Below are positions 30,372-30,867 of a stretch of DNA of 40,637 nucleotides, in pieces. How positions within the stretch are numbered: the stretch's first letter is position 1; each line of letters opens with the position of its first letter. The position numbers were made by a program, and so were the translations under genes. The DNA comes from Escherichia phage BUCT823: the sequence record PQ729991.1. One strand, given 5' to 3'. The notes below the pieces were generated by a model. It was not told the origin of the DNA and made no database searches. It saw nothing but the letters and a program-made list of their open reading frames with translations.

Positions 30372-30635
30372 CTATTCCAGAATATTCCTCACGTAATCCT
30401 GCAGCATGAACACTTTCAGGCGCAGTTGCCGTGCACATTCGGCATTCTGAACGTCGATAGCCAAATCTTCGTCAGCGTCGCTACTTGGGGGCGCCAGTTT
30501 GCACGGCGGCTGCATCATCGTCGTATCCGGGGATGGAATTGGCGTTTGCGACGGCGCGGGACTTGAGCAGGACGCGAGCATCGTCAAAAGTGCACACGCT
30601 ACGGCCAGGTGTTTTAATGTACTTAACGACTTCAC
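30372..30635 (-). CDS. Rz1-like outer-membrane lipoprotein spanin (o-spanin), GTG start, overlapping Rz in another frame
   Basis: signal peptide with lipobox LASC, proline-rich mature region; starts inside 30481-30867 with a GAGGTGA RBS. Confidence 0.55.
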   Translation of the reverse strand: MKSLSTLKHLAVACALLTMLASCSSPAPSQTPIPSPDTTMMQPPCKLAPPSSDADEDLAIDVQNAECARQLRLKVFMLQDYVRNILE

Positions 30636-30867
30636 GGGTAATCACCTCTGATTTCGTCTTGCCTTCGTTGCCAGCGGCTGCGGCCTTTGATTCGTCCTGC
30701 TGCTGCCGTTGTGTTTTCTTCGCTAACTCAGCCTGTGCTTCCTGCTGTTGCTGCGAAACGAGATTCGCCCGGCCTTCGTTCCAGCCGCTGCGGTACTGGT
30801 AGATGCCGTGTGCGTAAGCCAGGATGATGAAACATGCTCCCGCTACGACAGTTGCTTTAAGATTCAT
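30481..30867 (-). CDS. Rz-like inner-membrane spanin (i-spanin), 128 aa
   Basis: N-terminal TM helix, then Gln/Ala-rich coiled coil; AAGGAGA RBS; overlapped lipoprotein ORF. Confidence 0.6.
   Translation of the reverse strand: MNLKATVVAGACFIILAYAHGIYQYRSGWNEGRANLVSQQQQEAQAELAKKTQRQQQDESKAAAAGNEGKTKSEVITREVVKYIKTPGRSVCTFDDARVLLKSRAVANANSIPGYDDDAAAVQTGAPK

Follow-up and report, generated by a model that had tools for sequence, protein, structure and literature searches.

A probable overlapped spanin pair of the 'Jersey' family lies behind a conserved structured leader in the head-gene block of Escherichia phage BUCT823

Two overlapping minus-strand genes in the head-gene block of Escherichia phage BUCT823 (PQ729991.1; the whole analysed stretch of 40,637 nucleotides is called the window here) very probably code for a two-component spanin that belongs to the 'Jersey' overlapped family, with one subunit in the inner membrane (i-spanin) and a lipoprotein subunit in the outer membrane (o-spanin); the lysis function and the pairing of the two proteins are what we infer from their sequences. 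The window is that of a Kagunavirus-type siphophage (Guernseyvirinae). We judged the pair by the features that define two-component spanins (Summer et al. 2007; Kongari et al. 2018), beginning with the arrangement of the genes.

30481..30867, minus strand: i-spanin gene, 128 amino acids, ATG start, AAGGAG at 30877..30872
30372..30635, minus strand: o-spanin gene, 87-residue precursor, GTG start preceded by GAGGTG, in a frame different from that of the i-spanin gene
30481..30635, minus strand: two-frame overlap of the i-spanin 3' end and the o-spanin 5' end, 155 nucleotides by the coordinates and frames of the open reading frames (ORFs)

Genes for the two subunits may be embedded, overlapping or adjacent. 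A preliminary description of this DNA, made from its letters, had called the lipoprotein gene embedded; in fact only 155 nucleotides are common to both genes and the o-spanin gene extends 109 nucleotides beyond the i-spanin stop, which is the overlapped architecture. The same description had named the scaffold gene (29666..30292) and a plus-strand lipoprotein gene (31340..31684) as the neighbours, and these do flank the pair. It had also read the proteins correctly, as an i-spanin with an N-terminal transmembrane segment and a lipoprotein with the lipobox LASC and a Pro-rich region.

The sole hydrophobic stretch of the i-spanin is N-terminal (ATVVAGACFIILAYA, residues 5-19 onward, KD15 2.2 by hydropathy) and is predicted to form a single transmembrane helix at about residues 5-25. 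The remaining ~103 residues are polar, with many Gln, Ala, Lys and Glu, and contain a single cysteine, C92, that is nearly invariant among homologues. Single-sequence AlphaFold2, moderately confident overall, models a long helix over residues 3-64 at a predicted local distance difference test score (pLDDT) of 75-88, followed by two weaker helices; a sequence search of solved structures gave no match. The o-spanin begins with a predicted lipoprotein signal, MKSLSTLKHLAVACALLTMLAS followed by C, in which the lipobox LASC ends at Cys23 and Ser, not Asp, occupies the +2 position. Its mature part would comprise 65 residues, the first 30 of which are 30% Pro, with cysteines at mature positions 23 and 45. 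These cysteines (C45 and C67 of the precursor) and the lipobox cysteine are invariant across 11 homologues, down to 44% identity (alignment A3), with LASC, LSGC, LNGC and LSAC as lipobox variants. According to the spanin census, two-component spanins carry periplasmic cysteines for intermolecular disulfide bonds (Kongari et al. 2018), and C92 of the i-spanin together with C45 and C67 of the o-spanin fits that rule. The lipoprotein does not resemble a unimolecular spanin of the T1 gp11 type, as it is hydrophobic only in its signal peptide and its C-terminus (…RQLRLKVFMLQDYVRNILE) is polar.

Family profiles and homologues point the same way. The i-spanin matches phrog_2536, 'Rz-like spanin' (E 1.1e-54, residues 1-126), and the o-spanin matches two PHROG families of the same name, phrog_5672 (E 1e-29) and phrog_1267 (E 1.1e-18). 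At the nucleotide level, region 30300-31000 shares 99.4% identity with Shigella phage phiSD1 and 95-99% with ~50 Escherichia Kagunavirus phages, most of whose records carry a spanin annotation on these genes. In the curated genomes of Sciku (Kagunavirus) and Shelanagig (Jerseyvirus), the pair is annotated as i-spanin and o-spanin with lengths equal to those found here (the o-spanin gene has 264 nucleotides in Sciku), and the Sciku record refers to ADA82248/ADA82249 of phage K1G, 'overlapping inner/outer membrane spanin'. A translated search found i-spanin homologues in 630 phage records, at 60-76% identity in Salmonella Jersey-type phages and ~50% in Klebsiella Guernseyvirinae, with weak matches in HK578-like phages and Sodalis phage SO-1.

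The census lists, for i- and o-spanins alike, a 27-member 'Jersey' family under 'Overlapped', whose members include K1G, K1ind1-3, SETP3, SETP13, FSL SP-101, wksl3, HK578 and SO-1 (Kongari et al. 2018). The i-spanin of the window shares 74% protein identity with that of FSL SP-101, 65% with SETP13 and 62% with wksl3, the nucleotide identity to K1ind3 is 95.7%, and SO-1 gives a weak match (51% over 37 residues, E 7e-4). By similarity to these listed members, the window's pair is assigned to the 'Jersey' overlapped family. Like the pairs of K1G (ADA82248/ADA82249), Sciku (gp008/gp009) and Shelanagig (gp008/gp009), it has 128 and 87 residues, overlaps and lies between a Hoc-like gene and the scaffold gene; the differences are few substitutions (93% identity to Sciku for the i-spanin, 92% for the o-spanin) and a cargo lipoprotein gene inserted upstream of the leader in the window phage.

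The likeness to Rz and Rz1 of lambda is one of design. Both systems combine a type II inner-membrane protein that has a helical periplasmic domain with a small Pro-rich lipoprotein encoded in another frame, and both subunits have periplasmic cysteines. Rz1, however, lies wholly inside Rz, whereas the o-spanin gene of the window runs past the i-spanin stop, and the lambda genes directly follow S and R in one cassette, whereas the window's pair is 7.8 kilobases (kb) from the endolysin gene. The spanin genes PseT.3 and PseT.2 of the myophage T4, which we compared by architecture, are of the 'separated' type.

Annotation of the pair in public records is uneven. In phiSD1 (PQ571306, 7375-7521) the o-spanin is annotated as 48 residues with a start downstream of the signal peptide and lipobox, and many further records label one or both spanin genes 'hypothetical protein'; the short phiSD1 protein and these labels look wrong. 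Finding the pair adds little in itself, as it is annotated in curated genomes, included in the 2018 census and stated in genome papers. Its practical value is that several close relatives annotate it badly.

Several observations weigh against the spanin assignment. Neither protein matches the Pfam families of lambda Rz (Phage_lysis) or Rz1 at E<=0.1; at that threshold the i-spanin has no hits besides DUF2514 (14.4 bits against a cut-off of 26) and an unrelated transporter, and the o-spanin has none. The NCBIfam profile of P2 Rz1-like proteins (LysC; NF038368, P2_Rz1) stays below its cut-off (15 bits versus 27, E 0.02). The C-terminal half of the modelled i-spanin has pLDDT <50, and we found no experiment in the literature on any member of this spanin family. 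Finally, a conserved hairpin and a 19-base-pair (bp) box separate the o-spanin and scaffold genes, which bears on their co-transcription. The pair would be predicted to work like Rz and Rz1, yet it is no homologue of them that the Pfam or NCBIfam profiles used can detect.

On a rival reading, the two proteins form an envelope pair with no role in lysis, a lipoprotein and its inner-membrane partner serving, for example, superinfection exclusion or receptor masking and carried as cargo in the head module. In favour of this are the missing Pfam Rz/Rz1 match, the lack of an experimental test of the family in the literature we found and the location of the pair in a stretch that takes up cargo, 470 nucleotides from the lipoprotein gene of unknown function at 31340..31684; it is nonetheless very improbable, as cargo turns over (of 51 related loci, of which IMG/VR supplied 48 and GenBank 3, one has that neighbouring gene, whereas the spanin pair is in all 51 and in more distant HK578-like phages), as overlapped genes read in two frames, a Pro-rich lipoprotein and conserved cysteines in the periplasm are a spanin signature, and as a phage with a canonical holin and endolysin would otherwise have no spanin.

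We therefore return to the two-component spanin and propose how it could act. The mechanism of lambda Rz and Rz1 is well established and serves as the guide. The N-terminal helix would tether the i-spanin to the inner membrane, its helical domain extending into the periplasm. The o-spanin precursor would be lipidated at Cys23 and, since Ser rather than Asp follows at +2, sorted to the outer membrane. Both subunits would accumulate in the envelope during late infection and bind each other through their C-terminal parts to form a periplasm-spanning complex, which, by analogy with Rz and Rz1, the peptidoglycan mesh would keep inactive. Once the holins release the endolysin and the wall is destroyed, the complex could fuse or break the outer membrane and complete lysis. 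Because loss of the wall is the trigger and gating takes place after translation, the spanin genes would need late expression and not linkage to the holin and endolysin genes. In this subfamily they would stand first in the scaffold-capsid transcription unit, preceded by a conserved promoter-like site and a structured leader. A published Kagunavirus time course places lysozyme, head-morphogenesis and capsid genes in one temporal class and does not mention the spanins.

The other lysis genes lie upstream on the same strand.

39354..39662, minus strand: holin gene, phrog_2359
39089..39361, minus strand: second holin or antiholin gene, phrog_2508
38626..39126, minus strand: endolysin gene, PF00959 and phrog_33703/phrog_7

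Matches to PHROG and Pfam bear out the earlier placement of a holin, a second membrane protein and an endolysin at 38626-39662, and the distance of about 8 kb that had been given between these genes and a spanin pair inside the head-gene block measures 7.76 kb when taken from the stop of the endolysin gene to the start of the i-spanin gene. The pair had also been called the only one of its kind. A scan of all six frames of the window for lipoproteins (charged N-terminus, hydrophobic core, lipobox and Shine-Dalgarno sequence) returned two credible ORFs, the o-spanin and 31340..31684 (+), and the ten small ORFs that flank the lysis cassette, where a separate spanin gene beside the endolysin was sought, belong only to unknown-function, NinH-like or DUF families, with neither a spanin nor an antiterminator among them. 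The window thus offers no other candidate.

Where the preliminary description went too far was in calling such a split lysis cassette unusual. All 51 related loci have the order head-morphogenesis gene, Hoc-like gene, i-spanin, o-spanin, scaffold, the Hoc-like gene being absent in HK578-like and Klebsiella loci, and none of the 51 has a holin or endolysin gene within 2.5 kb of the pair. The arrangement recurs in the annotated genomes of phiSD1, Sciku, Shelanagig, Klebsiella phage 37P2 and the HK578-like phage Bas84, so that annotated genomes with this layout span Kagunavirus, Jerseyvirus, Klebsiella Guernseyvirinae and HK578-like phages. In Sciku, one strand carries in succession holin, antiholin, endolysin, a terminator, small nin-like genes, a second terminator, terminase, portal, head morphogenesis, an Ig-like protein, a third terminator, spanins, scaffold and capsid. 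Two papers (PMC6763661 and PMC9825357) state that the spanins lie apart from the holin and endolysin genes, and T4, the textbook case of unlinked spanins, has its spanin genes away from t and e (Kongari et al. 2018). As the separate position is annotated in GenBank genomes and stated in papers, the observation is correct and already known: it is the normal published layout of this phage subfamily. It is also a reminder that a search made only beside the endolysin gene misses spanins.

Downstream of the pair follow the main head genes.

29666..30292, minus strand: scaffold gene, the next gene downstream of the spanin pair; phrog_206, E 1.9e-41
28691..29659, minus strand: major capsid protein gene, 322 amino acids, annotated as major head protein in phiSD1
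28672..28653, minus strand: terminator after the capsid gene, AAAGGGGC-UACG-GCCCCUUUUU, read from the sequence

Co-transcription of the spanin genes with scaffold and capsid, which had been put forward earlier, is plausible from the promoter and terminator context. A sequence scan of the spacer from 30372, where the o-spanin gene stops, to 30292, where the scaffold gene starts, found no sigma-70-like promoter and no terminator, and the good terminator at 28672..28653 is the probable end of a spanin-scaffold-capsid unit. A TTGACA at ~30342..30337 was considered as a promoter between the two genes and rejected because it lacks a usable -10 element.

The structured leader is the only part of the locus that may be new. 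In Kagunavirus and Jerseyvirus alike, ~195-200 nucleotides extend in front of the i-spanin gene from a promoter-like site to a stem-loop, and a second, smaller hairpin lies between the two spanin genes and the scaffold gene.

31091..31119, minus strand: sigma-70-like promoter candidate, TTGACT (31119..31114), 17 nucleotides, TGcTAAGCT, with TG at 31099..31098 and the -10 hexamer at 31096..31091
30989..31060, minus strand: H1, a four-segment RNA hairpin of ~65 nucleotides, followed by conserved single-stranded UUCGGAAGG
30882..30924, minus strand: extended stem-loop of 43 nucleotides, ending 5 nucleotides before the i-spanin Shine-Dalgarno sequence
30315..30333, minus strand: second small hairpin, AAUCCGGG-UGG-CCCGGGUU, located after the o-spanin stop and before the scaffold ribosome-binding site

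In the promoter candidate, the pattern TG-n-TA-n-GCT and the -35 hexamer are conserved in Kaguna-type and Jersey-type loci, with variation at the n positions (alignment A1); a simple promoter scanner missed the site because its -10 element matches at only 3 of 6 positions. For H1, a covariance model (R1) derived from Kaguna-type sequences hits each genome once, at the leader site, Jersey-type genomes included, where the inner helices have a different sequence. Of the 22 pairs in the alignment, nine have changed on both sides, and 91.7% of the cells are paired. Covariation reaches 0.35, as against 0.158 in shuffles (0 of 500 attain the observed value) and at most 0.076 with partners slid, figures to be read with the fact that the alignment was fitted to model R1, which favours structure; independent single-sequence folds agree. 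After H1 comes a near-invariant UUCGGAAGGGCC, within which UUCGGAAGG is invariant. Neither strand of 30200-31400 matched an Rfam family at E<=1. The H1 model also has a weak second hit in Sciku, in its early region (19563-19636, plus strand, 23.9 bits, E 0.012), which was treated as probable chance because the window has no counterpart.

Curated genomes annotate a hypothetical protein of 36-39 amino acids within the leader. We think that this frame, a 38-residue ORF at 30962..31078 in the window, does not code, judging from its sequence context: it has no Shine-Dalgarno sequence, start codons and frames differ between phages, and the product would be 17 residues in one relative and have another C-terminus in another.

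The stem-loop before the i-spanin gene bears out the stable hairpin reported earlier upstream of the ribosome-binding site. That hairpin, the core at 30911..30892 (8 bp, of which 7 are G-C, a loop of 4 and the tail TTTACTTATC, a terminator-like match), is the top of a longer stem-loop spanning 30924..30882. All sequence variants among the related loci fold alike, at -17.6 to -32.5 kcal/mol. The top-stem pair 187:198 (alignment A2) occurs as CG, GC, AU and UA, and the lower stem reads GAUAAG/CUUAUC in loci of the Kaguna type but UAUACG/CGUAUA in those of the Jersey type, so the structure is conserved through compensatory changes. The stem is followed by UUUACUUAUC in Kaguna-type loci and by only UUAGCGUAUA in Jersey-type loci, and this tail pairs into the lower stem. 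A long-range helix proposed by RNAalifold, joining the 5' end of the leader with bases after the hairpin, was set aside, as the local lower stem forms alone in every variant. The second hairpin, 23 nucleotides before the scaffold ATG, also differs between the types, with the stem AAUCCGGG/CCCGGAUU in Kaguna-type loci and ACACCGGG/CCCGGUGU in those of the Jersey type; any of U, A, C and G may stand at the first position of the loop, and no U-tract follows the stem.

Tentatively, we propose that the segment from the promoter-like site to the i-spanin start may be an undescribed cis-regulatory RNA of Kagunavirus and Jerseyvirus that controls read-through, processing or stability of the spanin-scaffold-capsid transcript. 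If so, the spanins would come first in a late operon like that of lambda, with the holin and endolysin genes moved out of it, and the leader may reveal what governs the level or timing of late gene expression in these very common coliphages and Salmonella phages, on which we found nothing published. Three readings of the RNA elements can be distinguished: processing or stability, attenuation, and the end of a separate small RNA, of which we weight the first slightly more.

That the hairpins at 30924..30882 and 30333..30315 serve RNA processing or stability inside a long late transcript is a reasonable conjecture that we hold at less than even confidence. They could give different half-lives or translation rates to a spanin segment needed in small amounts and a scaffold-capsid segment needed in large amounts. 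Each hairpin stands just before a ribosome-binding site, at the distances given above from the i-spanin Shine-Dalgarno sequence and the scaffold ATG; both covary, and neither has a good U-tract in both genera. The first forms an interrupted stem of 17-18 bp, which may be of the type that RNase III recognises in T7 and lambda. This argument is purely structural, and the sole Kagunavirus time course that we found does not resolve these genes.

A working terminator or attenuator before the i-spanin gene is unlikely, with less to recommend it than processing. A constitutive promoter would here produce a leader RNA of ~195 nucleotides; spanin, scaffold and capsid would be made solely on read-through, which would depend on a phage factor or on the leader RNA itself. 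The layout invites the idea, with a promoter-like site, the leader, a G+C-rich hairpin, lysis genes and then head genes; the stem-loop and H1 are both conserved by compensatory changes, and frequent G-U pairs mark the spanin-sense strand as the one that is folded. Yet the Jersey-type tail UUAGCGUAUA is a poor U-tract, making a classical strong terminator doubtful, and the stem continues downward through the would-be U-tract. Moreover, no antiterminator is annotated in Sciku or phiSD1 or present among the ORFs scanned, and an efficient terminator would hinder very high expression of scaffold and capsid. Well-known systems of this design are pR'-6S RNA-tR' of lambda with Q, and the cis-acting put RNA of HK022. 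The leader resembles them in having a promoter, ~200 structured nucleotides and a G+C-rich hairpin ahead of lysis and then head genes, but no Q-like protein was found, the U-tract is weak and there is no sequence or Rfam similarity, so the likeness is one of layout only.

Other sequence elements near the locus deserve mention. A 19-bp box (minus strand ATGTTGGAATAAnnTATTC) occurs twice, at 31126-31144 and 30344-30362, each time just upstream of TTGAC(T/A), one copy preceding the spanin leader and the other the scaffold gene; it may be a binding site for a regulator. Adjoining the -35 hexamer of the leader promoter candidate is a palindrome, ACTATTCGAATAGT (31119-31132). The half-site GGAATAA is enriched (11 copies versus 4.4 expected) and was dropped as a genome-wide motif because most copies lie at gene ends or in coding sequence. 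A further motif, TGAATAGTAnCCTATTAT, is present in 7 copies versus 0.02 expected, apparently all intergenic when coordinates are compared with the ORF list.

453, 1814, 5245, 5289 and 7405, plus strand: motif TGAATAGTAnCCTATTAT
22639-22656 and 31200-31217, minus strand: motif TGAATAGTAnCCTATTAT

This motif matches a PHIRE consensus called phage-RNA-polymerase promoters in the fBC-Eco01 paper; neither Sciku nor the viewed part of phiSD1, which were the relatives examined for this, has an annotated RNA polymerase. Both minus-strand copies stand where the late gene string resumes after a plus-strand insertion.

The sequences on either side of the spanin genes vary among relatives.

31340..31684, plus strand: lipoprotein gene, 114 amino acids, with lipobox LSGC and a match to phrog_13472 (unknown function); it separates the Hoc-like gene from the spanin leader

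This gene is probably cargo, since it occurs in phiSD1 and in just one of the 51 loci, and the gap between the Hoc-like gene and the spanins, which ranges from ~320 to 1115 nucleotides among relatives, suggests a hot spot for insertion. On the other side, the scaffold and capsid genes of the window (28691-30292) are 96-99% identical in 7 of the 51 loci; in the others the scaffold is 40-67% identical and the capsid, in all but one, so different that similarity is undetectable, whereas the spanins are mostly 85-97% identical. This divergence beside conserved spanins suggests that scaffold and capsid have been swapped as a module, with its boundary at the conserved spacer between the o-spanin and scaffold genes.

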